From Dehalococcoidia bacterium (GTDB lineage Bacteria > Chloroflexota > Dehalococcoidia > DSTF01 > RBG-16-68-14): 64,000 nucleotides of DNA. Below the pieces are notes generated by a model. The model saw only the letters and a list, made by a program, of their open reading frames with translations, did not search any database and was not told the DNA's origin. The position numbers were made by a program, and so were the translations under genes. Below are positions 2,788 to 30,585 of this stretch, piece by piece (position 1 is the first letter of the stretch; each line of letters starts with the position of its first letter). Location: NCBI GenBank assembly GCA_040882355.1, contig JBBEBM010000042.1, positions 17,309-81,308 on the forward strand, read 5' to 3'.

Positions 2788-5088
2788 ATGAACACCAGCA
2801 AGCAGATCAACGCTATGGTGGTCGTCCTCTTCCTTGCCCTGATCACCATCGGCGCCTACGTCGTCTGGGACCCCTTCCGCAGCGAAGCCGCCGAGGACCA
2901 GCAGCTCGATATCACCGTCGAGCGCGGCGCGACGACCTTCGCGCTCAACTGCCGCTTGTGCCACGGCGACCGGGGCGAGGGCGGATCGGATGGCGGACGG
3001 CTGGGGGTGGCGCCCGCGCTCGACCGGGAGGGCCTGCAGGGGATCGAAGGGGGCACGTTCACTGCGGCCGCGCACGCCGCAGCCTTCAAGCTCGTCTCGA
3101 ACACCATCACCTGCGGCCGCGCCGGCACGGCTATGCCTACATGGGGCGCCACTCAGGGCGGCACCCTGAACGAAGAACAGATCCGCCAGCTCACAGTGCT
3201 CATCACCCAGGGCACCCTGGCCGACGGCCGCTCGACGTGGGAGCTGGCGCAGGAGCACGCCGACGAGATCGACGCCGAGTCCACCGCACACGCCGAGCTT
3301 GAGATGCCCGACGGCTTGACCGCCGACGCCGGCGAGATTGTGGTCAGCAGCGCCGAGCTGTTCAACCGGGACCAGTACATCCGCATCGACGAAGAGCGCC
3401 TCTACATCCCCGGCTACCGGCTGGAGGTGCAGCGCGCCGTAAATGGCTCCGCAGGCGCCGAGCACGAAATCGGCACCGCGATCCTCGAAGTAGACGTCGA
3501 GACCGGGGAGACGGTCAAGTTCGCGATCGCGCCGGAAGACACCACCATCTACGTCAGTGGCGTTCGCGGCGTCGAGGTCGACGACGTTCTGCGTAGCATC
3601 GATGTCGGCGACACGATCCGGATCGGCGAAGAGCAGATGACGGTGACCGCCAGCGCTTCCGGCATCCCGACCACCGGTCAGTTCCTCATCGAAGAGATCG
3701 GTAGGACACCGGGCAGCTTCCTGGTGAGCGGCATCGAAGGTATCGAAGCGGGCGCCGTAATCCGGCTCAACGGCGAGCTGATGGTCGTCGAGGCGATTCG
3801 AGACGATGGCGAGACCGCGATCGAGGTCGACGCTAACGTAGACGCCTCCGCCGAGACCATCGCCGTCAGCGACCCCGCCTTCTTCGGCGCCGACTATGTG
3901 ATGCGCATCGGCGACGAGCTCCTCCGCGTGGTCGAGCCCGTCGAAACGGGCCAGGCCCTGGGCGACCCCATCGGCCGCGCAGAGACCACGTTCGCCCTGA
4001 GCGGCACCGAGGGACTCGAAGAAGGAATGATCGTCCGCATCGATAGCGAGCTGATGCGTATCACCGAGCTGACACCGGCGAGCATCGACGTCGATCGCGG
4101 AGCGCCGCTGGAGGAAGAAGGCGACGAAACCGCGCCCGCAGCCCACGACGCCTCCACGCCCATCCTCCTGACCGGCGTGGAGGAAGGCGAAGACCCGGAC
4201 ACCGACCAGACGCTGCTCGAAGCAGCGGACGCCGACGCCACAGCACTGACCGTCAGCGGCACCACTGGCCTCGCCGTCGGGCAGACGTTCCAGCTCGGAG
4301 ACGAAGGCGTGCTCGTCACCGACCTCGAGCCCGCCCGCGCCCGCGTCGAGCGCGCCGTCGAGGACACGGACCTCGCTCACCATACCCGCCGCACCGCGAT
4401 TCACGACGGCAACTTCCTTGAGGTCGAACGCGGCTTCGACGGTAGTAGCGCTTCTGCGCACGACGAAGGCGACCCCGTCAACATGTTCGAGCTCGAAGTC
4501 GAGCGCGCGGCGGAGGGCTCGGAGCTGCAGGAGCACGGAAGGGGCGCGGAGGTATTCCTCGGCAACGGGCTGATGGTCGTCCGTGGCGTCAAGAGCACCG
4601 AACCCGCCGAGCACGAAGACGGCGCCCTGGTGCGCAACTTCCCCATCGCGCCGGACAACCCGGCTGACACCGCCATCGCTTGCGGCCAGCTCGCACCTCC
4701 TGAAGGCCCCGAGCCGACAGCAGGGCCAACGCCCACGGCAGGCGCTGGCACGCCTGTGGACGTGTCCCTCATCGAGTTCGAAGTCATTCCGGATCCGACG
4801 AGTGTGGCAGGAGGCGCCATCAACTTCAACGTCGCGAACGACGGCGAGATAATTCACAACTTCCGCCTCGCACTCACCGATCTCGCCGCCGACGACCTGC
4901 CCACAAGCGGTGGATCGGTAGATGAAGGCGAGTTGGAGGTCGTCGCCACGACGGCCTCCGATCTTGACTCCGGCGGCTCGGAAACCGTGGCTGCGACGCT
5001 CGACGCAGGCAGCTACGTCATGTTCTGTAATATCGTCAGCCACTACCTCAACGGCATGTACGCGGAGTTCGAGGTCACCGGCCAGTAG
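2788..5088 (+). CDS. membrane-anchored mono-haem cytochrome c fused to about seven ~55-aa repeats and a C-terminal type-1-copper cupredoxin domain
   Basis: There is an N-terminal TM helix and a CRLCHGD (CxxCH) motif at nt ~2950 with a Met-Pro ligand region. Repeats of the form hRIGxExhxV span nt ~3370-4680. The C-terminus has cupredoxin ligands: HNF...FCNIVSHYLNGM. Confidence 0.75.
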   Translation: MNTSKQINAMVVVLFLALITIGAYVVWDPFRSEAAEDQQLDITVERGATTFALNCRLCHGDRGEGGSDGGRLGVAPALDREGLQGIEGGTFTAAAHAAAFKLVSNTITCGRAGTAMPTWGATQGGTLNEEQIRQLTVLITQGTLADGRSTWELAQEHADEIDAESTAHAELEMPDGLTADAGEIVVSSAELFNRDQYIRIDEERLYIPGYRLEVQRAVNGSAGAEHEIGTAILEVDVETGETVKFAIAPEDTTIYVSGVRGVEVDDVLRSIDVGDTIRIGEEQMTVTASASGIPTTGQFLIEEIGRTPGSFLVSGIEGIEAGAVIRLNGELMVVEAIRDDGETAIEVDANVDASAETIAVSDPAFFGADYVMRIGDELLRVVEPVETGQALGDPIGRAETTFALSGTEGLEEGMIVRIDSELMRITELTPASIDVDRGAPLEEEGDETAPAAHDASTPILLTGVEEGEDPDTDQTLLEAADADATALTVSGTTGLAVGQTFQLGDEGVLVTDLEPARARVERAVEDTDLAHHTRRTAIHDGNFLEVERGFDGSSASAHDEGDPVNMFELEVERAAEGSELQEHGRGAEVFLGNGLMVVRGVKSTEPAEHEDGALVRNFPIAPDNPADTAIACGQLAPPEGPEPTAGPTPTAGAGTPVDVSLIEFEVIPDPTSVAGGAINFNVANDGEIIHNFRLALTDLAADDLPTSGGSVDEGELEVVATTASDLDSGGSETVAATLDAGSYVMFCNIVSHYLNGMYAEFEVTGQ

Positions 5089-17333: not shown

Positions 17334-17810
17334 ATGTCACGCGAAATCGCGAGTCCCGTAGCCCTTGCCAATCGTCCACCCGCTGCAACTGCAGCCTGCC
17401 CTCAGGAAGGCCTGCTTATCACCGCCGACGGCGCCCTCGCTCGCGCCTTCCTCAGCGGGCTAGGGAGCGGCGCCGAACGCACCATCGCCTTCGATGTGCG
17501 GTCGAGTCTTGCCGACGCGAAGGAGCTGGCTGGCGATAGGCGTCGCTGGGTGGCCATCGACCTGAGCGGCGCCGTGCCGCCGGTCGAGGCTGTTGGCATC
17601 GCGCGCCTGCTCTGGCCACAAGCGCGCATCGCCGTACTCAGCTCGTGGTGGAGCGACCAGGACGCCGCCGCCCGCGAGCTGGCGGACACGGTGATCCACA
17701 AGCCGTTGCGCTCGCATGAGATACTCGCATTCTTGAGCGACAGGCCGGTCGCCGTGCCCAATGCAGCGCCGCCAGCGGCTGCGACGCCGCCGCTTCGCAA
17801 CGCAAGCTAG
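17334..17810 (+). CDS. CheY-like receiver-domain protein (stand-alone)
   Basis: REC-like landmarks are present: LLITAD, VAIDLSG, VLSS, HKPL. Confidence 0.45.
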   Translation: MSREIASPVALANRPPAATAACPQEGLLITADGALARAFLSGLGSGAERTIAFDVRSSLADAKELAGDRRRWVAIDLSGAVPPVEAVGIARLLWPQARIAVLSSWWSDQDAAARELADTVIHKPLRSHEILAFLSDRPVAVPNAAPPAAATPPLRNAS

Positions 17811-18487
17811 ACGGCCGGTCGCGCCCCGTTCTCGCGCAGCTCCCACTCCGGCCAGCCCTCCTGCCCGCCGATGAGCGGCACGAAGCGGCACTCGCCCAGG
17901 CGCTCCAACGTCACGCCTCTATCGGAGTTCGTCACCCGCACCAACTGCTGGGCCTTCCGGCTACCCACCGGGATCACCATCCGCCCGCCCATCGCGAGCT
18001 GGTCGACGAGGGAGCGAGGCACCTCGGGCGCGCCGGCGGTGACGATGATCGCGTCGTACGGCGCCTCGTCCGGCCAGCCGAGCGTCTCTTTCGCCGGGTA
18101 CACCCTCACGTTGTTGTAGCCCAGCGCCTTCAGCCGGCTCGCCGCAGACTGAGCCAGCTCCGGAATGCGCTCCACGCTGATCACTTCGCGCGCCAGCAGC
18201 GAGAGCACAGCAGCCTGGTAGCCCGAGCCCGTCCCCACTTCCAGCACCTTCCCGTCGCCTCGAAGCTGCAGCGCCTCCGTCATGATCGCCACCATCAGCG
18301 GCTGCGAGATCGTCTGCCCCTCGCCGATCGGGAGCGGCCGGTCTTCGTACGCGTAGCGGTGCAGGTCAGGGATCACGAAGCGCTCGCGCGGCACGCGCCC
18401 GAACGCCTCCAGCACGCGTTCGTCGCGGATCTCCTTGCGCAGAGCGCGAACCATGTCGGTTCGCGCAGCCTCGAAGTCGATGGGCAC
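17807..18487 (-). CDS. pcm: protein-L-isoaspartate O-methyltransferase
   Basis: It has the SAM-binding motif VLEVGTGSGYQAAVL and the ISQP motif, as in the PCMT family. Confidence 0.88.
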   Translation of the reverse strand: MPIDFEAARTDMVRALRKEIRDERVLEAFGRVPRERFVIPDLHRYAYEDRPLPIGEGQTISQPLMVAIMTEALQLRGDGKVLEVGTGSGYQAAVLSLLAREVISVERIPELAQSAASRLKALGYNNVRVYPAKETLGWPDEAPYDAIIVTAGAPEVPRSLVDQLAMGGRMVIPVGSRKAQQLVRVTNSDRGVTLERLGECRFVPLIGGQEGWPEWELRENGARPAV

Positions 18488-18552: not shown

Positions 18553-19704
18553 TCAGGCTCTCGCTCGCTGCCAGAAGTGGCGTTGGATGCGCTCCAGATG
18601 TCCCTCAGGGAGGCGCTGCGCGGTGCCCTCTCTCAGTCCCGTCACGTCCGAGTCGAACGACTGGATCGCGGCGACACGCAGCCACCACTCGAACGTCTGC
18701 AGCACCTCCCAGTAGCGCAGCCGATCCTTATCGATGGGCAGGTGCTTCCGGTAGCCGCGCAGATAGCGCCGCACCAGCATGTACCGGCCGAAGCGGTCGA
18801 GCAGCATGCCGATCACACCGCTCAGCTCGCCGGGCGCCGTGCGCATCAGGACGAGCGTGCTCGCGATGTCGCAGTGCCGGTCGCCCAACGCCGCGCCCGA
18901 CCAGTCGATCACGCTGAGGCGCTGCTCGTCGTCCACAACGATGTTCTGCGGATGGAAGTCGTTGTGGCAGAGCGAAGCCTCCTCCGGCATCACCATCCCC
19001 TTGTGCGCTTCGAGCCAGGCGAGCGCGTCGTCTGTGCCGGTCACACCCATCGCGGCGATGCGACGGCGGAAGTCAACGAGCTGGCGCTCCACGAGCGTGC
19101 CGTCCGCGGGCAACGGACACGCCTCGACAGGAAGCCGGTGCAGATCGGCGTGCGCCTTCGCCATCAGCGGCGTCAGGCCGCGCGCAGAGATGGGGTTCGC
19201 CTGGAGGCGGTCGAGCATCGTCCGGCCGGGCGCGCGCTCCATGATCAGGAACGGCCGCCCGAGCGCACCTGCGCTCGTCTCAATGGCGAGGACCGCGGGT
19301 GCTGGATACCCACGTTCGACCACGAAGCGCTGAACCGCGCCGTCGAACTCGGCTCGCTCGCCCTGTTCGGCGTTGGGGTAGACGCGCAGGATGAGCGGGC
19401 GCGCCCACGCGGGGTCGACGCCGTCGCTCTCCAGGCGGAAGGTGTAGATGTGCGTCTCCCAGCCCGTCTCGATCGCCGCGGGCGCCTCGGCGAAGCGCAG
19501 GTCATCGACGCTGAGCCGCGCCGTCAGGTACGCGAGTAGCGCCGGCGCGACCTGATCGGCCCGGGACGGGTCGCTGGGCACGAGCCACCTCCGGCGCCCA
19601 GTGTAGGCGAGCGCCTCGGGAGGAGCCAACATTGAACCGATGCGGGACCTTAGAGCGGCTTCCAATCCTGACGAAAGGTCGGATGCGTAGGCAATTGACT
19701 CCAT
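18553..19704 (-). CDS. aminoglycoside phosphotransferase (APH)/kinase-like protein
   Basis: The catalytic loop LCHNDFHPQNIVV and the DWSGAALGDRHCDIA motif are present. Confidence 0.75.
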   Translation of the reverse strand: MESIAYASDLSSGLEAALRSRIGSMLAPPEALAYTGRRRWLVPSDPSRADQVAPALLAYLTARLSVDDLRFAEAPAAIETGWETHIYTFRLESDGVDPAWARPLILRVYPNAEQGERAEFDGAVQRFVVERGYPAPAVLAIETSAGALGRPFLIMERAPGRTMLDRLQANPISARGLTPLMAKAHADLHRLPVEACPLPADGTLVERQLVDFRRRIAAMGVTGTDDALAWLEAHKGMVMPEEASLCHNDFHPQNIVVDDEQRLSVIDWSGAALGDRHCDIASTLVLMRTAPGELSGVIGMLLDRFGRYMLVRRYLRGYRKHLPIDKDRLRYWEVLQTFEWWLRVAAIQSFDSDVTGLREGTAQRLPEGHLERIQRHFWQRARA

Positions 19705-20245
19705 GTGCCTGGATGCAAGATGGCCTCCACAATCAGCCCATCGAGTTCTGCTCTGTTCTCAATTGTCGGCTGCGGGTAAGTCCTCTCGTCCAAGTACTCT
19801 GCACGCGGTGCCCTCAATCTATCGTGTACCGACAGGAAGCCCTTGCCAACTGTCATTTCGACACCCGTGAACCGCTTCGCCAAAGTAAAGCCGACTCTGG
19901 CGACAGCCCGGTCGCTCTCAAGCCGCACACGGTAGGCAACGCAGAATCTCTTATGAAGCCATGTCTTCCGTGGGTTGAGATCGAAATACTGGTCGAAGGG
20001 GTCTCATCTACGTGCATTTGGGCGTTCCAGTTGCGATAGCTCGGAAGTAATCTAAGAGCTTCCTCTATCGATCCCTGGATCCCCGCTGCGTAGCTGAACT
20101 CGTTTACCTCAGTCCGGGCGGCTGTATACTCCCGAAGTCGGTGCTCATCTCTTTCTCGGTGACGCCGCTCCTCGCCCGATTGCTTAAGTTCGTCCTCAGC
20201 AAGGGCTCGGCGGAACCGTCCGTCCAAACTCATCATGTCCTCCAC
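19650..20245 (-). pseudogene. low-GC region with two overlapping minus-strand ORFs in different frames (probable frameshifted or degraded gene)
   Basis: ORFs 19853..20245 and 19650..19928 overlap out of frame. GC is visibly lower than in flanking DNA. Confidence 0.25.
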
Positions 20246-20308
20246 AACCTTTTCGCATCCCTCACACCAGCTCCTTCACCTTCTCCGCCGGCGACCGCGT
20301 GACGCGGC

Positions 20309-20672
20309 TTACTTCTCTTGTTCCAGGCGCTCCAGCAGCCACATGCGCGCGAGGGTAGACGCGCCCATCCCCTTCTTGCGTCCCGCCTTCGGGAGTAGAT
20401 CGATTCGTCTTCGCATCGAGGCGCACTCCCGGGATGTGCCCGAGCGGCCGCGTCACCGTCAACCGCTTCAATTCCTTCCACTCGCCGTAGTCCAGCGGGC
20501 TGTGCGTGTCCCGGAACTCCGCCTCTTCTTCGCGCGACGTGAACTCAAGGACTTCGCCGCTCACTTTGGGATGTGTCCGATGCCAATTCCGAGCTTCTTC
20601 TTCGCCTGCCCGATCTTCGTGGTGACGTTGTCCTGGTGCGGACCGAAGCGTGCGAGCTGCTTCTTCAGCCAC
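20309..20672 (-). pseudogene. BrnA-like (RHH/CopG-type) antitoxin gene, copy 1, disrupted by a 1-nt indel
   Basis: It has the N-terminal SREEEAEFRDTHSPLDYGEWKE motif. Shifting frame by one restores a C-terminal RHH, ...KKGMGASTLARMWLLERLEQEK*, ending at TAA 20309-20311. Confidence 0.5.
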
Positions 20673-20967
20673 CTGCCGCTGTAGGCAAGCTCATAGAGCG
20701 TCCAGATAGCATCTTCGGTTCGGCCAAGGGACTGCGCCAGGTTCGCTACATTCGCTCTCGTAGGTACAAGCGACAAGACCAGTTCGATCTCCCCTCGCGT
20801 GTAAGGATCAAAGGCCTTTGGCACTCCTTCTCGTTTGGTTTTCATGGAACTGTCACCTCCTCCAAGGTCGACATCTGCAATCTGGGCAGGATTGTACCAG
20901 ACCAGTGGTCACCCTCACACCGTCTCCTTCACCTTCCCCGCCAGCGACCGCGTGAGCGAGCGCGGCC

Positions 20968-21252
20968 TACTTCTCGTCTTCCAGGCGCTCGAGGAGCCGC
21001 ATACGCGCGAGGGTCGACGCGCCCATCCCGCTTTTTGCGTCCCGCCTTCGAGAGTAGATCGATCGTCTTCGCGTCGAGGCGCACGCCCAGGATGTACCCG
21101 AGCGGCCGCGTCACCGTCAACCGTTTCACTTCCTTCCACTCGCCGTGGTCCAGCGGACTGTGCGTGTCCCAGAACTCCGCCTCTTCTTCACGGGACTTGA
21201 AGCGCGGGATCTTCTTCGGCTTAGGCCCCGGTTTCACGCGTGGTGCAGCCAT
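20968..21252 (-). pseudogene. BrnA-like antitoxin gene, copy 2, frameshift at an A5 run
   Basis: MAAPRVKPGPKPKKIPRFKSREEEAEFWDTHSPLDHGEWKEVKRLTVTRPLGYILGVRLDAKTIDLLSKAGRKK is followed, after a +1 shift at CGCAAAAAG, by GMGASTLARMRLLERLEDEK* (stop 20968-20970). Confidence 0.5.
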
Positions 21253-21261
21253 CCTCAGCGC

Positions 21262-21657
21262 TTAGACACCCTCGCTCGGTTCGCAGACGCGGACGGTTCC
21301 ATCTGGTTCGACGAAGAGCCAGTAGAGCGGCAGGGCCTGCCGCACCCTCGGGCTCACCTTCCTACACTGATGGAGGAATTGCGGGATAGCTGGGACCGCA
21401 AGAGCATACCGACTCGTTTCATCCCTCATTTGCTGCAGGATTTGTCCCAGCCCAGTGCGAAAGTCGAGTCCGATGTCAGCGGTCTGCCCTTTGGCCTCTA
21501 CTACCCATCGCTCTCCTGTTGTAGGGTGGACGCTCGTAAGATCCGCTGTTCCTTCTGAGGTGGGACGAAAGCCGGCCTTGAGGAAATGCGCTTCGATCGA
21601 TTGTTGAACGAATCCCTCATTCGGGTACTCGGTGCCACGACGATAGGTCCGGCCCAT
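21262..21657 (-). CDS. hypothetical protein with a PD-(D/E)xK nuclease-like motif
   Basis: The product contains ...GTADLTSVHPTTGERWVVEAKGQ... (D...EAK). It sits directly upstream of BrnA-like copy 2 and is co-oriented with it. Confidence 0.35.
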   Translation of the reverse strand: MGRTYRRGTEYPNEGFVQQSIEAHFLKAGFRPTSEGTADLTSVHPTTGERWVVEAKGQTADIGLDFRTGLGQILQQMRDETSRYALAVPAIPQFLHQCRKVSPRVRQALPLYWLFVEPDGTVRVCEPSEGV

Positions 21658-21661
21658 CAGT

Positions 21662-23542
21662 CTACACCAGCTCCTTCACCTTCTCCGCCAGCGAGCGCGT
21701 GAAGCCGACGGTCGACGCGATCTCATCGATGGGGGCGTCGCGGATGCCCTTCACCGAGCCGAACTTGCGCAGCAGCGCCCGCTTCCGCTTCGGCCCGACG
21801 CCCGGCACGGCGTCGAGCGCCGACTGCACGGCCGCCTTCTTGCGCAGGCCGCGGTGGTAGGTGATCGCGAAGCGATGCGCCTCGTCGCGGACGCGCTGCA
21901 CCAGGTAGAGCGCCTGCGACGTCCGCGAGAGCACGATCGGCTCCGTCATGTCCTTGACGAACAGCTCCTCGTTGCGCTTCGCCAGGCCCGCCGCCGGGAT
22001 CTGCTCGACGCCCAGGTCGCGCATCGCGTCGAGCGCGGCGTGGAGCTGCCCCTTCCCACCATCGACGATCAGCAGGTCGGGCAGCGTCTGGAACGACGCG
22101 TCCTCGCGCCGGGCCGCGCGGCCCCCCGCCCGTGCGCCGTCATCCTCGCTCGAGCCGTCGCGCTCAGGCGGGGCGGTCGCGCGGCGGAAGCGGCGCTTGA
22201 GCACTTCCGCCATCATGGCGAAGTCGTTCGAGCCTTCGACCGTGCGTATCTTGAAGCGACGGTACTCCTGCGGGCGCGGCTGGCCGTCGGTGAAGACGAC
22301 CATGCTACCGACGGCGTTCGTGCCCTGGATGTTCGAGATGTCGTAGCACTCGATGCGGCGCGGCGAGTCCGGGAGGTTCAGCTCCTCCTCCAGCTCGTCG
22401 AGCGCGGCCTGCGTCTTCGACGTGTCGGCGAGCCAGCGCGCTTTCGCCTGTTCGAGCGCCTCGCGGGCGTTCGCCTCGGCCATCTGAACGAGTTTGCGCT
22501 TCTCGCCGCGCTCGGGCACCAGCAGCCGGACGACGCCACCGCGACGCTCCGTGAGCCACGACGCGAGCAGCTCTGACTCGGGGACGGCGACCGGCAGCAG
22601 GATGCGCTTCGGGATGTAGGTGGCCGAGCCGTAGAACTGCTTGAGGAAGCTGGCGAGCACCTCCGCGTCGGGCTCGTCCTTCGCGCCGTCGAGCGTGAAG
22701 TGGTCGGTGGCGACGAGCTTCCGGCCGCGCACGAAGAGCGCCTGCACCATCGCCTCGGTGTCCGTGCGGGCGAGGCCGAAGACGTCTTCGTCCGCCGGCT
22801 TCGTCGACGCGACGGTCTGCGTCTCGGTGACGCGTTCTATCGCGCGGAGCTGGTCGCGCAGGCTGGCGGCGCGTTCGAACTCCAGCGCTTCGGACGAGGC
22901 GTCCATCTGCGTTCGCAGCGCGCGCACGACTTCGTCGGTGCGGCCTTCGAGGAACATGATCGTCTGGCGGATCACCTCGGCGTACTCCTCCTGCGTGGCG
23001 AACGACGAGCACGGAGCGATGCAGCGGTGGATGTAGTACTCCAGGCACGGCCGAGGGTCGTCGCCGGTGATCACCTTCGTGCACGTTCGCCAGGGGAAGA
23101 GCTTCTTGGTGATGTCCAGCGTCTTGCGCACCGAGCCGGCGCTGGCGTACGGCCCGAAGTAGCGCGCGCCGTCCTTCTCCACGCGACGCGTGATGTAGAC
23201 GCGAGGGAACGGGTCCGTGAGGTCGACCTTCAAGTAGGGGTAGTGCTTGTCGTCCTTGAGGCGCACGTTGTAGAAGGGCTGATGGCGCTTGACGAGCGTC
23301 GCCTCCAGGAAGAGCGCCTCCTGCGCCGTGTGGGTGACGATGTACTCGAAGTCGGCGATGGCGGCGCGCAGGCTGGCGAGCTTCGCCTCCATGCTGTGGG
23401 CGGCGCCGAAGTACGAGCGCATCCGGCTGCGCAGGTTCTGCGCCTTGCCGACGTAGACGACCTGGCCGCGGTCGTTGCGGAAGACGTAGACGCCGGGGCG
23501 CTGCGGCACCGACTTGAGCCGTTCGACCAGCGGTTCGGGCAT
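21662..23542 (-). CDS. uvrC: excinuclease ABC subunit C
   Basis: It has an N-terminal GIY-YIG domain (GVYVFRNDRGQVVYVGKAQNLRSRMRSYF), the UvrC centre and a C-terminal HhH. The product ends ...SLAEKVKELV. Confidence 0.92.
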   Translation of the reverse strand: MPEPLVERLKSVPQRPGVYVFRNDRGQVVYVGKAQNLRSRMRSYFGAAHSMEAKLASLRAAIADFEYIVTHTAQEALFLEATLVKRHQPFYNVRLKDDKHYPYLKVDLTDPFPRVYITRRVEKDGARYFGPYASAGSVRKTLDITKKLFPWRTCTKVITGDDPRPCLEYYIHRCIAPCSSFATQEEYAEVIRQTIMFLEGRTDEVVRALRTQMDASSEALEFERAASLRDQLRAIERVTETQTVASTKPADEDVFGLARTDTEAMVQALFVRGRKLVATDHFTLDGAKDEPDAEVLASFLKQFYGSATYIPKRILLPVAVPESELLASWLTERRGGVVRLLVPERGEKRKLVQMAEANAREALEQAKARWLADTSKTQAALDELEEELNLPDSPRRIECYDISNIQGTNAVGSMVVFTDGQPRPQEYRRFKIRTVEGSNDFAMMAEVLKRRFRRATAPPERDGSSEDDGARAGGRAARREDASFQTLPDLLIVDGGKGQLHAALDAMRDLGVEQIPAAGLAKRNEELFVKDMTEPIVLSRTSQALYLVQRVRDEAHRFAITYHRGLRKKAAVQSALDAVPGVGPKRKRALLRKFGSVKGIRDAPIDEIASTVGFTRSLAEKVKELV

Positions 23543-23689
23543 GGCGATTCCATGGTAGCGAATCGGCCCTCACCCCCAACCCCTCTCCCGCCTTGCGGGC
23601 GAGGGGAGCGGGCCGCGGCCAGAGGGCGCTGCTGATTCTCATCCTGAGCTTGTCGAAGGGTGCCCTCCCTCGGCCCCAGTCCCGCGCGT

Positions 23690-24075
23690 TTTGTGGCAGT
23701 ACGTTTTGCAAAATCGCCTTTTCTGGCGAAGCACCTCGAATCACCTCCTGCGCGGGAGTCTGGCGGGCGGGCGCTGAGCGAAGCACGCCCTCGCCGGCTT
23801 GTCGAGTATGAGGATACGGGCGCGGCGGGAGATCTCGAAGGGGGCGGCGGCAGCGGCAATGCCCGATGCCTTAACCGCGCGTCTTGTGTCATTACGTTTT
23901 GCAAAAGCGCCTTTTTCGAGCGGATCGCCTCGAATCACCCCGCGCGCCGAATCCAGCGCACCGGCGCCGAGCGCTGTACGCCCTCGCCGGGTTGTCGAGT
24001 GTGAGGATACGGGCACCGCGGGAGAGCGCGAAGGGGGTGGTGGCGCGGTGCTTGACATCCGCCGGCGCGGTGGTA
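23690..24075 (+). repeat. two tandem copies (~193 bp each) of the dispersed repeat family (cores ACGTTTTGCAAAATCGCC / ACGTTTTGCAAAAGCGCC)
   Basis: Copy 1 (~23690-23882) and copy 2 (~23883-24075) align with each other and, in reverse complement, with 8040-8205 and 34130-34330. Confidence 0.7.
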
Positions 24076-24122: not shown

Positions 24123-27100
24123 GTGCGACTCTTGCATATCGTAGCGGCCGTAGCTGGTGCGGTTCTGATCGTAGCCGTTATCCTAAGTGCTTCGTCACGC
24201 CCGGATGCCATTCTGGCCTCTGGCGCAACTGAGATCTCCGCCGGTGGAAGTCACACCTGTGCACGGACAGCGCTTGGAGACGTGAGGTGCTGGGGCCAGA
24301 ACCTGGTAGGACAACTAGGGAACGGTTCGTTCTCGGGGCCAACAGACGCGAATCCAATTCCGGTGGAGGTGTTGGGGCTGGAAGGCAGCGCAGTGATGGT
24401 GTCCGCCGGCGGACTCCACACGTGCGCTGTCACGGTGATCGGCGGCGTGAAGTGCTGGGGCGACAACTTTAGCGGGCAGTTAGGCGATGGCACAACACTG
24501 GAGCAACAGCCCCCTGGCCGGGCGATTCCCGTGGACGTGGTGGGCCTCGGCAGCGGCGTTGAGACTGTCAGCGCCGGCGGCTCGCACACGTGCGCTCTAA
24601 CCGCGGAGGGAGGAGTGAAGTGCTGGGGTGGAAACGAATTTGGACAACTAGGTGATGGAACGACCACTAATCGAGCCTTACCGGTAGATGTGGAAGGGCT
24701 CAGCGAAGGCGCAACGGCAGTGGCGGCGAGTGGTTTCCACAGCTGTGCCCTCATCGCGTCGGGAGGCGTCAAGTGCTGGGGCAATAACCAGGATGGGCAA
24801 CTGGGGAACGGAATGTTTGCTAACAGTGCGATCCCCGTTGACGTGGCCGGGTTAGATGATCCAGTGGTCAAACTAACAGCCGGGTTGGGCTATGATGGCC
24901 ACACCTGCGTCTTAACCGCAAAGGGAGGTGTGCGGTGCTGGGGTGGGAACGAGAATGGACAATTGGGTGATGGAACGACGATTGACAGAAGTACACCAGT
25001 TGGCGCGGCGGGACTTGCAAGCAGCGTGACCGGCGTGTCCGCGGGCGGCGGGGGATCCATCGCGCCGTTTGCAGGACACACGTGTGCGATCACCGAGTCG
25101 GGTGGGCTGAAGTGCTGGGGTGGGAACAACTCTGGCCAGCTGGGCGACGGAACGACTACGCAGCGCCTGGTTCCAGTCGATGTGACAGGATTGAGCGCAG
25201 ACGTGTCTCGCATATCGGCTGGAGGCGGCGGCGGATGGTCGCCGTACAGCGGCCACACATGCGCGGTAGCGACTGACGGCCGCGTGAAGTGCTGGGGCGG
25301 GAATCAGTATGGACAGTTGGGTGATGGTACGGATACCGCTTCCACCTCGCCGGTGGAGGTGGTTGGATTCAGTGTGAAGCCGACGGCTACGCCGACCGGA
25401 ACGTCTACACCGTGCGGGCCAGAAGGATGTCCTACACCGACGACGACCTCGACGCCTACAGCTACGAGAACGCGGACGCCTACGTCCACGCCGACCAATT
25501 CAGCCACTCCTACCATGACGGCCAGTCCCACAGGCTCAGCGACCAGCACTGCGACGAGGACGAACACGAGGACCGCTACGTCTACTCCATCACCGACCGG
25601 AACCCGAACACCCACGCCAACACGGACACCATCCGCCACGCCGACGGCAACCCCTGTGAAGGAGGGCTTGAAGGTGAAGGTGCTGGCACCGAATTTCGTG
25701 AGCCCGGGCCAGACCTTCAATTACGTGGTCACGTATACCAATGGTGCAACTTCTCCTATAGCCGATGCGAAGCTGATCAGCCGGCTTCCATCTACGGCCA
25801 CGTTCAATTGGTCGTGGCCGCCGGGAACCTACGATGCAGAATCGCGTACCGTCTCTTGGGACCTTGGAGCAATCAGCCAGGAGAGCAGCGGATCGTTTTC
25901 GGTTAGTGTCGTGACAAATTGGGGCCTGTCGGTGGGCACAGTCCTGGAGAACCTGGCTAGCGTGGAGCAACAGGGAGCTCCTGCGGAAGCGAGCTCTGCG
26001 CACCAGTCGACAGAAGTCGCTAGCGCTGGTGCGTTTCGGCTGCCGTTTGTTGGCCGCACGAGAGCGTCGACCTACGCTGGTCATGGCGAAGCTCTGGACT
26101 TCTGGATGCACCGCCCATCTGTGGACAACTCATGGAACGGCGAAGTCAGGGCAGCGCAGCGCGGTGTGGTCGTGTACGCGCAGATGAATGTCGCAGGTGG
26201 TTCGAGCTCCGCCTGCCCAGGTAGACCCGTTGGTTACGGCAATCTCGTGGTCCTGGAGCACCACATCAAGGGCGTTCGGTACACCACCCGATATGCGCAC
26301 CTCAGCACCTTCAACGTTAGAGTGGGGGAACAGGTACCGCAAGGGTACCTAGTAGGCACCTACGGCGATACTGGCTGTACTTTTTCGGCGACAGGTGACG
26401 CGAGACACCTTCACTTCGAGCTTCGGAAGGGCGGTGCATTCTGTCCACCACATCCCACGGCCTGCCCGTCAGTCTTCAGTGGCTCTGAGCTGGATATTAC
26501 CGGACTAAGCGGGATAACGAGCGTCGGCAGCCCAAGCGGGGGCGGAGATGCAACGGGGGCTCCGCTTGCTGCTTCGGGCCAGCTCAATCAGACACGGATA
26601 GTGGTGGCCAGCGATCCTAATGCGAAGCATGCCGACCGTGAGTTCGCTGAGCATGGTGACACGGTAAACTTCACTATCGAATTCGAGAACGAGGGTGAGG
26701 GCATCGCTTTCGGTGTCAATGTTGTGGACACGCTGGACCAGGACCTCGATGTTTCTACTCTACTGCTCCCGGAGGGAGAAGGCGGAATCTACGACGCTGC
26801 CACGAGGACAATCGCGTGGGACTTAGGTGAGGTGGGGCCAGGCGAAGGCGGGGAGTTGCACTTCATCGCCAACGTGCACGGCGATGCAGAATGTGGCGAC
26901 GAGGTGATGAACTCGGCGACCGTGAACTTCCCGAGCGTACCGGAAGTGACGACTACGAATGGCGTTTCCGTGGTGGTCATCGGTTCCGGGTGCGACCTCG
27001 ATTCCGACACCTTGCCTGATCTGATAGACAACTGCTCGATAATGTCGAATGGTCCTGCTCAAGCCGCCATTCCTGGCGTAGGGAACCAGACCGACAGTGA

Positions 27101-27707
27101 CAGTGACGGGGATGGAGACGCCTGCGACAATGACGACGACAACGACGGCATGCTGGATGCTTCCGAAGTCTTCTACAGCTGCATGGACCGCGTTGTGGCC
27201 GACGCTTCACTTGACTACGATGGCGATGACCTCGCCAACGCAGCCGAAATGAGCTTGTGGAAGACCTTTGGACTGAGCACGGATCCTTGCGACGCGGACA
27301 CGGACAGCGATGGATGCCTCGACGGGCGAGAGGTACTCACTCAGGCTGGCACGCAGGTGTCCGGCGGCCGCCGGGATCCCCTGTACTTCTGGGACTACTT
27401 CGACGTGCCGACAGGCTTGCCGCCGACGCGCGACGGTGCCGTGAGTGCGGGAGATGTTGCTGGGGTGGTGGCCCGGTTCGGCTCAAACGACGATGCGCCC
27501 GGCACTTTCGATCGCGGGAGCGATCCCCTGTCCGCTCCGCAGGCGCCAGTGCAGCCCTCGGGCGCCCGGGCCAACTACCACCCCGTGTACGACAGAACCG
27601 GCGTGACGCCAGGCGGCGAGACTTGGGATCTCCTGCCGCCGAACGGTTCTATAACGTCGGGAGACCTTGCGGCGGTTGTGGCACAGTTCGGCCACAGTTG
27701 CATCTAG
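24123..27707 (+). CDS. secreted multidomain protein: signal/TM, 7x RCC1 repeats, T/P linker, DUF11-like, M23 peptidase, DUF11-like, TSP3-like Ca-binding repeats, dockerin-like C-terminus
   Basis: RCC1 repeats follow CWGxNxxGQLG(D/N)G. The T/P linker is at nt ~25390-25650. The M23 domain has HLHFEL (nt ~26090-26450). Asp-rich DxDxDGxxD repeats precede the C-terminal ...WDYFDVPTG...AGDVAGVVARFG...SGDLAAVVAQFGHSCI. Confidence 0.7.
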   Translation: MRLLHIVAAVAGAVLIVAVILSASSRPDAILASGATEISAGGSHTCARTALGDVRCWGQNLVGQLGNGSFSGPTDANPIPVEVLGLEGSAVMVSAGGLHTCAVTVIGGVKCWGDNFSGQLGDGTTLEQQPPGRAIPVDVVGLGSGVETVSAGGSHTCALTAEGGVKCWGGNEFGQLGDGTTTNRALPVDVEGLSEGATAVAASGFHSCALIASGGVKCWGNNQDGQLGNGMFANSAIPVDVAGLDDPVVKLTAGLGYDGHTCVLTAKGGVRCWGGNENGQLGDGTTIDRSTPVGAAGLASSVTGVSAGGGGSIAPFAGHTCAITESGGLKCWGGNNSGQLGDGTTTQRLVPVDVTGLSADVSRISAGGGGGWSPYSGHTCAVATDGRVKCWGGNQYGQLGDGTDTASTSPVEVVGFSVKPTATPTGTSTPCGPEGCPTPTTTSTPTATRTRTPTSTPTNSATPTMTASPTGSATSTATRTNTRTATSTPSPTGTRTPTPTRTPSATPTATPVKEGLKVKVLAPNFVSPGQTFNYVVTYTNGATSPIADAKLISRLPSTATFNWSWPPGTYDAESRTVSWDLGAISQESSGSFSVSVVTNWGLSVGTVLENLASVEQQGAPAEASSAHQSTEVASAGAFRLPFVGRTRASTYAGHGEALDFWMHRPSVDNSWNGEVRAAQRGVVVYAQMNVAGGSSSACPGRPVGYGNLVVLEHHIKGVRYTTRYAHLSTFNVRVGEQVPQGYLVGTYGDTGCTFSATGDARHLHFELRKGGAFCPPHPTACPSVFSGSELDITGLSGITSVGSPSGGGDATGAPLAASGQLNQTRIVVASDPNAKHADREFAEHGDTVNFTIEFENEGEGIAFGVNVVDTLDQDLDVSTLLLPEGEGGIYDAATRTIAWDLGEVGPGEGGELHFIANVHGDAECGDEVMNSATVNFPSVPEVTTTNGVSVVVIGSGCDLDSDTLPDLIDNCSIMSNGPAQAAIPGVGNQTDSDSDGDGDACDNDDDNDGMLDASEVFYSCMDRVVADASLDYDGDDLANAAEMSLWKTFGLSTDPCDADTDSDGCLDGREVLTQAGTQVSGGRRDPLYFWDYFDVPTGLPPTRDGAVSAGDVAGVVARFGSNDDAPGTFDRGSDPLSAPQAPVQPSGARANYHPVYDRTGVTPGGETWDLLPPNGSITSGDLAAVVAQFGHSCI

Positions 27708-28887: not shown

Positions 28888-30585
28888 TCAGGCGCAACTG
28901 TGGCCGAACTGCGCGACGGAGGCGGCGATGTCGCCGGCGGTGATCGAACCGTCGGCGGGCTGGAGGTCCCACGGCTCGCCACCCGGCAGGATGCCGCCGC
29001 GCTCGTACGCGCTGTGGTAGGCGGGCGCGGGCGGCGGCGGCGAAAGCGGGTCGCCCGGCTTGCCCGTCGCGCCGAAGCGCGCGACGACGCCCGCGATGTC
29101 GCCGGCGGTGACGGCGCGGTCGCGTGCGGGCGGCGGAGCGCCCGTTGGCACGTCGAAGAAGTCCCAGAGGTTGTTGGGGTCGCGTCGCCCGCCCTCCGTG
29201 GCATCGAGGCCCAGCTCCTGCGCGTCGCTGCAGCCGTCGCCGTCGCTGTCTTTGAGCAGGACAGGCGCCGGCAGCGGGCTGTCGGTCGTCGAGCCGTCGC
29301 CGAGCTGGCCGAAGGCGTTATCGCCCCAGCAGAGGACCGCGCCCGACGCAATCGCGCAGGTGTGCAGCGTACCGGCCGCAACAGCTTCGACGCCGCTGAG
29401 CGCAACGCAGGGCAGGTCGGCGCAGACGGCCACGGGGTTGTGCCAGTCGGTCGTGGTGCCGTCGCCGAGCTGGTTGCTGGCGTTGCGGCCCCAGCAGCGC
29501 GCGCCGCCGTTCGAGAGCGCCGCGCACGAGTGCTCGTCGCCCAAGCTGAGGCCGTCGATGCCCGTCAGCGCGACCCCGCCCGCGCAGTTCGTGCCCACGC
29601 CCGTCGCGCAGACGTCGAAGGGGTTCGCCCGCTGGAACGCCGTGCCTTCGCCGAGCTGGCCGCGGAAGTTCAGGCCCCAGCACTTCGCGCCGCCGTTCGA
29701 CATCAGCGCGCAGCTATGCCTGCCGCCCGCGTCGATGTCGCTCACGCCGGAGAGCAGAGCGCAGCCTGCGCCGGAGCCGAACTGACAGACGTCCGTGGGA
29801 CTGGGGCGCGGGTGAACGGCGGTGCCGTCGCCGACCTGGTTCTCGGAGTTCTGTCCCCAGCACTTCACGCCGCCGTTCGACATCAGCGCGCACGTGTGGT
29901 CGATGCCCGCGGCGATATCGACCACGTCCCCGAGGGCGGCGCAGGTAGCGGCGCTTCCCGTGGCGCAGACCGTCGCCGGCAGCGCGACGTCGAAGGCAAG
30001 GCCGTCGCCCAGCGCGCCCGCGGTGTTATCGCCCCAGCAGCGCGCTTCGCCGCTCGAGAGCGCCGCGCACGAGTGGTCCTTGCCCGCTGCGATCGCCGCG
30101 CTGCTGACACCATCCATGCCGGACACGTGGATCGGCAGCGGGTGCGCGTTCGTGTCCTGCGTGCCGATGCCGAGCTGCCCCTGGTTGTTCGCGCCCCAGC
30201 ACATCACGCCGTTGTCCGTGTTGAGGGCGCACGTGTGGAAGCCGCTCTCGCCGCCCGCCGCGATGGCGATGATGCCGGTGAGCGACCCACCGCCGGCGCA
30301 GCCCGCCCCCGAGCCGCTGGCGCAGACCTCCACGGGCGACGTGCGCATCGCGGCCGAGGTGCCGTCGCCGAGCTGGCCCCAGGTGTTGTCGCCCCAGCAC
30401 TTGACGGTGGTGTTGTCGAAGAGGGCGCAGGTATGGGCGCCGCCCGCCACGATCTCGATGACCTGGGCGCCTGTCGCAGCGGCTTCCGGCGGGCCGCCGG
30501 GCCGTCCGAGCGCGAGGCCCGCCGCCAGCGCCGCTATCGCGACGCCGAACGCCACCCCCACCAGCACCCATCGATTCACAAGCAT
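28888..30585 (-). CDS. secreted RCC1-repeat protein (7 repeats) with a TSP3-like repeat and the same dockerin-like C-terminal module
   Basis: It has an N-terminal signal/TM, CWGDNTxGQLGDG repeats, and the C-terminus DSDGDGCSD...LWDFFDVPTG...AGDIAGVVARFG...AGDIAASVAQFGHSCA, which is homologous to the C-terminus of 24123..27707. Confidence 0.7.
   Translation of the reverse strand: MLVNRWVLVGVAFGVAIAALAAGLALGRPGGPPEAAATGAQVIEIVAGGAHTCALFDNTTVKCWGDNTWGQLGDGTSAAMRTSPVEVCASGSGAGCAGGGSLTGIIAIAAGGESGFHTCALNTDNGVMCWGANNQGQLGIGTQDTNAHPLPIHVSGMDGVSSAAIAAGKDHSCAALSSGEARCWGDNTAGALGDGLAFDVALPATVCATGSAATCAALGDVVDIAAGIDHTCALMSNGGVKCWGQNSENQVGDGTAVHPRPSPTDVCQFGSGAGCALLSGVSDIDAGGRHSCALMSNGGAKCWGLNFRGQLGEGTAFQRANPFDVCATGVGTNCAGGVALTGIDGLSLGDEHSCAALSNGGARCWGRNASNQLGDGTTTDWHNPVAVCADLPCVALSGVEAVAAGTLHTCAIASGAVLCWGDNAFGQLGDGSTTDSPLPAPVLLKDSDGDGCSDAQELGLDATEGGRRDPNNLWDFFDVPTGAPPPARDRAVTAGDIAGVVARFGATGKPGDPLSPPPPAPAYHSAYERGGILPGGEPWDLQPADGSITAGDIAASVAQFGHSCA

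Follow-up and report, generated by a model that had tools for sequence, protein, structure and literature searches.

Copies of the uvrC tail delimit small gene cassettes between uvrC and pcm in a Dehalococcoidia bacterium

Introduction

The 3′ ends of tRNA genes, tmRNA genes and a small number of protein genes are known as insertion hotspots, for which an identifiable integrase normally provides the explanation. Here we analyze a 64,000-nucleotide stretch from a Dehalococcoidia bacterium (GenBank assembly GCA_040882355.1, contig JBBEBM010000042.1, positions 17,309 to 81,308 of the forward strand), termed the window, in which the terminal 42–44 nucleotides of the repair gene uvrC recur downstream of the gene itself, between small genes that include two broken antitoxin genes of the CopG family. 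A first reading of the letters and their open reading frames (ORFs) alone, termed the sequence-only reading, had taken this arrangement for an integration hotspot with tandem cassettes, one of which might encode a non-canonical toxin. The locus raises the question of what these repeats delimit, how the DNA between them may have arrived there, and whether the genes next to the antitoxin genes are their toxins. We find that the locus is a real insertion site and not a pair of new toxin–antitoxin (TA) systems.

Results

The uvrC tail recurs downstream of the gene

All genes from position 23542 down to 17807 are encoded on the minus strand (coordinates are those of the 64-kb window). In this direction, the locus reads uvrC with its native tail (t0), ORF131 and the pseudogene copG-A1, a first tail copy (t1), ORF94 and the pseudogene copG-A2, a second tail copy (t2), ORF130 and ORF68, a gene for an APH-family phosphotransferase, and pcm (Table 1). 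The three tails, taken over 44 nt, are 84–91% identical to each other and lie at spacings of 747 and 653 bp. A search with the 30-nt core of the tail, allowing up to three mismatches, yielded three matches in the window versus none expected from 100 shuffles, and a hidden Markov model of the tail recovered only t0, t1 and t2 from the full 64 kb, each with E ≤ 2e-11. The recurrence described in the sequence-only reading is thus borne out, and of the two positions given there 20262–20300 agrees with t2, whereas 20925–20965 is displaced by about 10 nt from the true t1 (20912–20955). Furthermore, the repeated block exceeds the tail: the segments 20259–20543 and 20912–21201, each comprising a tail and most of a copG gene, are about 90% identical.

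The uvrC gene itself is 60–81% identical on the amino acid level to uvrC of Dehalococcoidia/Chloroflexota, with a best identity of 68% among the species representatives of the Genome Taxonomy Database (GTDB), and its carboxy-terminus (..LAEKVKELV*) is typical of the family. No tRNA or tmRNA gene that could serve as a target was found within the 64-kb window. The interval between uvrC and pcm spans 3.2 kb, with about 2 kb of low GC content between uvrC and APH/pcm. The GC fraction amounts to 0.545–0.56 over 19600–20200 and to 0.58–0.66 from there up to 21660, compared to ~0.70 in the flanks, in agreement with the lower GC content that had been noted for the distal part. A separately assembled Logan contig (SRR27977658), which may share reads with the assembly of the window, is 100% identical over 3631 bp, including both frameshifts of the copG genes.

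All tail copies, in the window as well as in the related genomes described below, diverge from the native tail within ~3 nt of the stop codon. At the other end, most of them share T(C/G)AC, ~42 nt upstream, as their start, with a longer copy in L101 and a shorter t2 in L090 (L-numbers are labels of the related loci and genomes compared), and overall this left edge varies from 11 to at least 57 nt. Because the copies bear non-synonymous changes and one of them has lost its stop codon, they are not coding and do not represent translated relics under selection. The tail is purine-rich and holds an AAGGAG motif that might provide the following gene with a ribosome-binding site. None of the tails folds significantly better than shuffled sequence on either strand (z −0.95 to +0.75), and we obtained neither a terminator or promoter prediction on the minus strand nor an Rfam match for the tails.

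The interval between uvrC and pcm is variable in related genomes

A comparison with relatives, which the sequence-only reading had suggested, revealed the empty site: in the more distant relatives L001, L005, L006 and L011, uvrC is directly followed by pcm, at a distance of 12–100 nt. Likewise, none of 32 species-level relatives carries a repeat of the uvrC tail (0/32), and a search of 80 relatives for copG or brnT, the gene for the BrnT toxin, at a distance of up to 10 kb from uvrC found neither. Tail copies together with a set of common cassettes, placed in varying order between uvrC and pcm, were however found in no fewer than five further metagenomic Chloroflexota genomes. These cassettes comprise brnT-copG, an orphan copG, APH, a homolog of ORF94 and a beta-lactamase-like gene, and the uvrC genes of the closer relatives bearing such arrays are 74–84% identical to that of the window. 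In L090, L093, L110 and L112, pcm marks the far end of the variable region.

The order of the elements differs from genome to genome. L090 and L105 (Chloroflexi RBG_16_68_14) read uvrC-t0, copG-A, t1, brnT-copG-B, t2 and ORF182, with pcm further on, whereas L101 carries brnT-copG-B and then the longer tail copy, which reads AATPGFTRSLAEKVKELV*. In L102, a copG remnant, a tail, APH, a tail and brnT follow each other, so that APH represents a tail-flanked cassette in itself; in L093, APH is found between two copG genes. In L089, a degraded tail (nhmmer E = 0.014) precedes the ORF94 homolog by about 75 nt, and past this homolog lies a beta-lactamase-like gene, which L093 and L100 also contain. 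The brnT-copG-B cassette comes first past uvrC in L092, L100 and L107, and second in L090. Taken together, the empty sites and the arrays of L090/L105, L101, L102 and L089 corroborate that the 3′ end of uvrC is an insertion hotspot and that the tails delimit the cassettes.

In L110 and L112, whose uvrC genes are 62–67% identical to that of the window, uvrC is followed by brnT, copG and later pcm, and no tail copy is present. L110 has an intact brnT gene, whereas that of L112 is missing from the gene calls and apparently degraded. This basal brnT-copG arrangement indicates that the TA operon is an old resident of the uvrC site. The tail copies match the uvrC tail of their own genome at 33–37 of 42 positions and the copies in another genome at 28–31 of 42. 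Between these genomes, uvrC and copG agree at only 50–69% of their third-codon positions. The closeness of the copies to the resident uvrC tail implies that they arose recently in each lineage or, alternatively, that continuing recombination or gene conversion maintains their similarity.

Additional repeated motifs were observed at these loci. Directly past the uvrC stop codon, three to four tandem units of 7–8 nt (GCTCGAGG, GGTCGAGG or GCTGGAGG) occur in L090 (4933–4970), L093 (77–125) and L107 (270–300), and none in the window. A GC-rich palindrome, CCCCTCTCCCTCG..GAGGGAGAGGGG, which resembles a REP-type element or a terminator, is common to the hotspots of L089 (1–27) and L093 (~4940–4966). 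All brnT-copG cassettes open with a conserved promoter/operator-like palindrome (TGTATATACAATG or TGTATTACAATGTT) overlapping or abutting the brnT start codon (L090: 5307–5345; L092: 3940–3985; L102, on the reverse strand; L110: 7678–7720; L112: 7582–7625; L124: 5955–5980), suggesting leaderless or tightly autoregulated transcription.

Both copG genes of the window are frameshifted orphans

The two copG copies contain the motifs EEAEFWDTH and GMGASTLARM(W/R)LLERLE, based on which they had been called BrnA-like. The motifs are indeed present and related copies partner BrnT, but the Pfam family is CopG_antitoxin (PF12441) and not a BrnA model. With one base removed, copG-A1 matches PF12441 with E = 4e-7 and 31.1 bits, above the Pfam cutoff of 28, whereas copG-A2, treated in the same way, reaches E = 7.6e-4 and 20.6 bits, below this cutoff. 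Alignment with three intact homologs identified a separate single-base +1 insertion in each copy, located beside an A5/T5 run in copG-A1 and within GACGA[A]TCG in copG-A2. The two copies are thus broken by different indels as previously described, except that the extra base of copG-A1 lies next to the homopolymer run and not inside it. The repaired copG-A1 shows 74–78% amino acid identity to the intact copies in L090 and L092, and its Shine–Dalgarno sequence and ATG are located 10 nt past the ORF131 stop codon. In copG-A2, the first ~8 codons are lost or replaced and the GTG start overlaps the stop codon of ORF94 (GTGA); since this junction removes about eight of the first copG codons, it represents a secondary fusion.

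A tblastn search with BrnT did not detect brnT in the window, where the genes upstream of the two copG copies are ORF131 and ORF94. In the closer relatives, two copG types can be distinguished, with type B being the partner of brnT and type A, the type of the window, being an orphan in all of them; the two types are only ~40% identical on the amino acid level. The presence of BrnT was confirmed with Pfam in L092 and L090. All five close copG-A homologs that could be placed on contigs are situated between uvrC and pcm (5/5), and those of L110 and L112 come after the brnT gene described above. A plasmid origin of copG-A was rejected, as plasmids yielded only one distant match with 30% identity. 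Compared to TA operons of the BrnT/BrnA type (BrnT_toxin PF04365 with CopG_antitoxin PF12441), the locus is alike in that its copG genes belong to PF12441 and those of its relatives are located downstream of BrnT, and it differs in lacking brnT and in having both copG copies frameshifted. The copG genes of the window appear to go back to a brnT-copG operon that has long had its place beside uvrC.

ORF131 belongs to a family associated with mobile elements

ORF131 had been described as nuclease-like on the basis of a short motif, and the structure model (predicted local distance difference test score of 92) agrees with this assignment, displaying a PD-(D/E)xK fold of the restriction-endonuclease-like alpha/beta type, closest to XisH, with the putative catalytic residues D39, E54 and K56 invariant across 13 homologs. 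XisH is the excision factor of the fdxN element and acts with the serine recombinase XisF. The likeness of ORF131 to XisH (PF08814; PDB 2okf/2inb) lies in the predicted fold; the sequences are only 18% identical, the XisH Pfam model gives no match, and a XisF partner is lacking in the window. The structure 2okf is XisH, assigned to PF08814 within the PD-(D/E)xK family (PMC3424549). A Pfam scan at E ≤ 1 gave only a weak PDDEXK_9 hit (E = 0.28) for ORF131 and no match for distant members of its family either, and searches of PADLOC, NCBIfam and PHROGs yielded no matches; within the PDB, no relative was detectable on the sequence level.

The ORF131 family comprises ~720 clusters, some members of which are fused to OGG-like glycosylase domains. 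A large serine recombinase lies within 3 kb of the ORF131 homolog in two of ~13 contexts, L085 and L119, and not in the window; in L085 the two genes are adjacent and next to a tRNA 3′ end. A further homolog is located near a tyrosine integrase and a restriction–modification system (L084), another in a prophage-like region (L082), and relatives are also found on small ColE1-type plasmids as well as on seven IMG/VR contigs. On plasmids of 3–5 kb from E. coli and Enterobacter (L121/L122), the ORF131-type domain forms the amino-terminal half of a ~240-aa hypothetical protein; this protein and a 99-aa ORF are the principal cargo carried by small ColE1/Rop plasmids of Enterobacteriaceae. The ORF131 family is therefore a mobile-element-associated PD-(D/E)xK family. 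A phage origin of the locus was rejected, as the tail pattern was absent from the viral contigs and phage collections tried, and copG-A as well as ORF131 itself were absent from these phage collections. For ORF94, the structure model predicts a homeodomain-like DNA binder.

The distal cassette and the flanks of the locus

The ORF130/ORF68 cassette, searched as separate ORFs or as a repaired fusion, did not match any family in Pfam, NCBIfam, PADLOC or PHROGs. Although it had been taken for a degraded ORF pair, it looks more like an intact pair of a 130-aa and a 68-aa ORF coupled through ATGA, and both ORFs are gene-called in L081.

Upstream of uvrC, we observed a ~193-nt tandem duplication (23682–24044; copies 23682–23851 and 23875–24044, 77–90% identical). 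Two large RCC1-repeat proteins (24123–27707 and 28888–30585) are encoded between uvrC and a block of M50, HD, PDH and EPSP synthase genes; the RCC1-like domain was confirmed with Pfam for the 28888–30585 protein and read from the translation only for the 24123–27707 protein. As the same M50-HD-PDH-EPSP synthase block adjoins uvrC in L090, the upstream side of uvrC also differs between the genomes.

Table 1 Features of the uvrC–pcm locus, in window coordinates
Feature	Coordinates	Strand	Remarks
uvrC	21662..23542	-	Intact, 626 aa; last 42–44 nt are the recurrent junction sequence
t0 (native uvrC 3′ end with TAG stop)	21659..21702	-	nhmmer E = 2.8e-15
ORF131, XisH-like PD-(D/E)xK protein (predicted)	21262..21657	-	Intact; start 4 nt past the uvrC stop; cassette 1 cargo
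copG-A1, orphan CopG-family antitoxin pseudogene	20967..21252	-	+1 insertion at ~21030
t1 (tail copy)	20912..20955	-	35/42 identical to t0; non-synonymous changes; TGA stop; E = 1.9e-11
ORF94, small homeodomain/Myb-like helix-turn-helix protein (predicted)	20561..20845	-	Cassette 2 cargo
copG-A2, orphan CopG-family antitoxin pseudogene	20309..20563	-	+1 insertion at ~20404–20405; amino-terminus replaced
t2 (tail copy)	20259..20302	-	37/42 identical to t0; TGA stop; E = 4.5e-13
Cassette 3: 130-aa ORF (19853–20245) and 68-aa ORF (19650–19856)	19650..20245	-	ATGA overlap; lowest GC (0.55)
APH-family phosphotransferase	18553..19632	-	PF01636 E = 3.7e-33; inside the variable uvrC–pcm interval
pcm (protein-L-isoaspartate O-methyltransferase)	17807..18487	-	Conserved far boundary of the hotspot

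Discussion

Accretion of cassettes at the uvrC tail

Sequential site-specific integration is one of several mechanisms that fit the tail repeats, the empty site, the hotspot common to several genomes, the shuffled cassettes elsewhere, the protein assignments and the lack of a recombinase found locally. The account that we favor, and to which we give about an even chance of being correct, is that integrase-less cassettes accreted in the slot between uvrC and pcm at an attachment (att)-like site in the gene tail, comparable to cis-mobilizable elements (CIMEs), pseudo-SCC elements (SCC, staphylococcal cassette chromosome) and the ssrA islands of Dehalococcoides. Insertion would take place at the last 42–44 bp of uvrC, which would keep a complete tail, and each event would strand a non-coding tail copy on the far side of the new DNA, in which case t1 and t2 would be old junctions equivalent to att sites. 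The array would grow by accretion, as for cis-mobilizable elements, and the tails might be recombined by an enzyme encoded elsewhere or by RecA-type exchange between them. Identity blocks of this kind, 42–44 bp long and reaching to the stop codon, are characteristic of tyrosine-integrase sites located in gene 3′ ends, and an integrase of this type would be the best fit; serine integrases fit such a near-identical repeat poorly, because their attB and attP sites differ. The copG genes would then be relics of a brnT-copG operon that stood beside uvrC since before the lineages diverged, of which the window would have lost the toxin and retained two dead antitoxin copies, with ORF131 and ORF94 as unrelated cargo in the place once held by the toxin.

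Several observations weigh against this account. No integrase was found in the window, where Pfam detected only housekeeping families and no Phage_integrase among 30 mid-size ORFs, and where phmmer with one large serine recombinase and one tyrosine integrase found nothing, as the sequence-only reading had already stated; nor do the gene calls of the array loci L090, L092 and L093 include a recombinase. The only one encountered is a tyrosine recombinase beside pcm in L110, housekeeping Xer-type in look, at a locus that has no tail copies. A full-length element flanked by uvrC tails was not found, and inspection of the flanks of the copies from three cassette classes gave no shared attP-arm motif. 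The cassette edges coincide with functional edges, namely a promoter −35 box and a stop codon, and not with recognizable recombination sites. The two copG-A-plus-tail units of the window are ~90% identical to each other and only ~76% to those of other genomes, which is equally compatible with a local block duplication and with two separate insertions. Finally, in L124 the tail of another gene may have been duplicated, so that the duplication is perhaps not specific to uvrC.

Relation to known cassette arrays

The staphylococcal SCC/pseudo-SCC arrays occupy the 3′ end of rlmH (orfX), with repeats of ~15–18 bp and Ccr serine recombinases, and some of their cassettes lack ccr. The arrays described here resemble them in that cassettes line up behind a housekeeping gene, with short repeats of the gene's terminus between them, and differ in that a near-identical 42-nt uvrC repeat poorly fits the attB/attP asymmetry of serine integrases. 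Chromosomal integrons share with the present arrays the sub-kb cassettes, often promoterless and often TA-bearing, their co-oriented arrangement by a fixed entry point and the repeated site per cassette. Here, however, no intI was found in the window, and the repeat copies coding sequence, shows no attC-like imperfect palindrome and does not fold; the lack of significant folding ruled out a reading of the tails as attC sites.

In the same bacterial class, Dehalococcoides genomes carry tandem islands stacked 3′ of one essential gene, ssrA, each bounded by a 20-bp repeat of its 3′ end (McMurdie et al. 2011; PMC3146451). These islands span several kb and target a tmRNA gene, and many of them encode the 540-aa serine recombinase DsiB, whereas some lack an integration module and have been proposed to be cis-mobilizable elements (PMC3146451). 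The uvrC arrays share with them the stacking at a gene 3′ end and the repeats of that end, but involve a protein-coding target, a repeat of 42–44 bp and units of 0.37–1.15 kb, and no recombinase was found in the arrays. Accretion at the 3′ ends of protein genes is also known for CIMEs, as for ICESt1/ICESt3 at fda, where decayed elements keep attL and attR and lack an integrase (PMC5704250). The direct repeats per unit, one of them being the target gene 3′ end, the empty site and the reordering of the units elsewhere are common to both cases. CIMEs differ in being remnants of identifiable integrative and conjugative or integrative and mobilizable elements with a known cognate integrase, whereas no parent element was identified here and the units are in the small size range of integron cassettes.

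Alternative explanations

Among the alternatives, the strongest, which we nevertheless consider unlikely, dispenses with a dedicated recombinase: a single ancient copy of the uvrC tail behind copG would have been followed by homologous shuffling, through unequal crossing-over between tails or copG copies, gene conversion from uvrC, or allele replacement after DNA uptake with uvrC and copG/pcm as flanking homology. The two units of the window would then reflect a local duplication of the copG-A-plus-tail block. In line with this, the similarity of the two blocks extends over 285 nt including the spacer between copG stop and tail, and they share derived states (CGG, TGA and GGG) that are absent from t0. 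The tracking of the resident uvrC tail by the copies is what gene conversion predicts, the variable slot is framed by a conserved anchor on either side (uvrC and copG-A or pcm), and the recombinase searches of the window and of L090, L092 and L093 point in the same direction. Yet 42 nt poorly serve RecA-type exchange, and the tails follow three unrelated cassette ends, those of copG-A, copG-B and APH, so that one ancestral duplication would need many extra events. In addition, sliding-window identity revealed neither a mosaic nor an elevated between-genome similarity at the uvrC 3′ end, by which recent homologous exchange at this site was rejected, and the origin of the first duplication is left unexplained.

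More speculative, and in our estimate rather improbable, is that the arrays represent an undescribed Chloroflexota cassette system, in which an integron-like array of 0.4–1.2 kb cassettes would use the ~42-nt tail of a housekeeping gene as its recurring attachment site and depend on an unlinked or unknown recombination activity. The contents would comprise TA modules, orphan antitoxins, a kinase, and nuclease-like and helix-turn-helix genes. In a stronger form, brnT-copG would enter at the ends of more than one essential gene (uvrC and an aminoacyl-tRNA synthetase gene), making tail duplications of 27–60 nt.

This leads to a related alternative that we deem more doubtful still, in which the brnT-copG cassette itself is the inserted unit and staggered cuts duplicate 27–60 nt of a housekeeping-gene tail, not only that of uvrC. 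It draws on L124, from an unrelated low-GC organism, where a copG homolog 68% identical to that of the window is located 46 nt past a class-Ib aminoacyl-tRNA synthetase gene. The operator-like ACAATGTTATACAATG, which precedes brnT at other loci, is located in the gap between the two, as is what looks like a short beginning of brnT (MKIRNYKKW, judged by eye from BrnT-B amino-termini). Directly after copG, the synthetase tail recurs as a 24/27-nt copy that closes with a stop codon in register (L124: 5918–5954 and 6340–6376). This architecture, if real, would link the tail duplication to the cassette rather than to uvrC. Cassette edges no more than ~10 nt from the promoter and ~0–13 nt from the copG stop codon, as well as the variable left edge of the tail copies, are also consistent with it. 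L124 is, however, the sole example outside uvrC, and its local alignment score of 44 versus a maximum of 41 in 500 AT-rich shuffles gives modest support. Moreover, tails also flank cassettes without brnT-copG (APH, ORF94 and ORF130/68), L110 and L112 have brnT-copG beside uvrC without a duplication, the surroundings encode no enzyme with a known action on cassettes of this kind, and terminal repeats were not observed.

Far less probable is that each unit is a TA pair in which ORF131, and likewise ORF94, is a non-canonical toxin neutralized by the CopG/BrnA-like antitoxin, as the sequence-only reading had considered for ORF131. Both genes do sit where BrnT is found in L092, L090 and L110, they are tightly linked to the downstream copG through the short spacing and the GTGA overlap described above, and the nuclease-type D-E-K triad of ORF131 is intact. 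The window's copG type, however, occurs elsewhere alone or behind brnT-copG, and no copG was found next to the homologs of ORF131 (L082–L086, small plasmids, proviruses) or of ORF94 (L087–L089). ORF131 has stayed intact although both antitoxin genes are frameshifted, which would not be tolerable for a CopG-dependent toxin; the ORF94–copG junction deletes the copG amino-terminus, ORF94 is predicted to bind DNA, and neither PADLOC nor Pfam gave a toxin match. The toxin proposal is therefore not upheld.

That the repeats are not junctions at all, but functional RNA or terminator-like elements convergent on the uvrC tail or an assembly artefact, has a negligible probability in spite of the purine-rich AAGGAG-containing sequence, given the negative folding, terminator, promoter and Rfam results, the identical Logan contig (possible shared reads notwithstanding), the same architecture in arrays from other samples, and the 84–91% rather than exact identity of the tail copies, which makes a k-mer collapse unlikely.

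Implications

If the arrays were only old relics shuffled by homologous recombination, the locus would be an ordinary genomic islet. What sets it apart is the use of uvrC as a target, the very small size of the cassettes and the fact that no recombinase was found in arrays from different samples: a protein-coding repair gene is followed, in at least five related uncultured genomes, by an array of integron-cassette-sized units split by 42–44-nt copies of its own tail. The analysis further defines two uncharacterized protein families associated with mobile elements, one of XisH-like PD-(D/E)xK proteins and one of small homeodomain-like proteins. Should a trans-acting enzyme or a recombinase-free route prove true, the locus would provide a simple and tractable model for the exchange of small genes in streamlined uncultured Chloroflexota, as well as for the decay of TA systems into orphan antitoxins and for the turning of gene tails into attachment sites.

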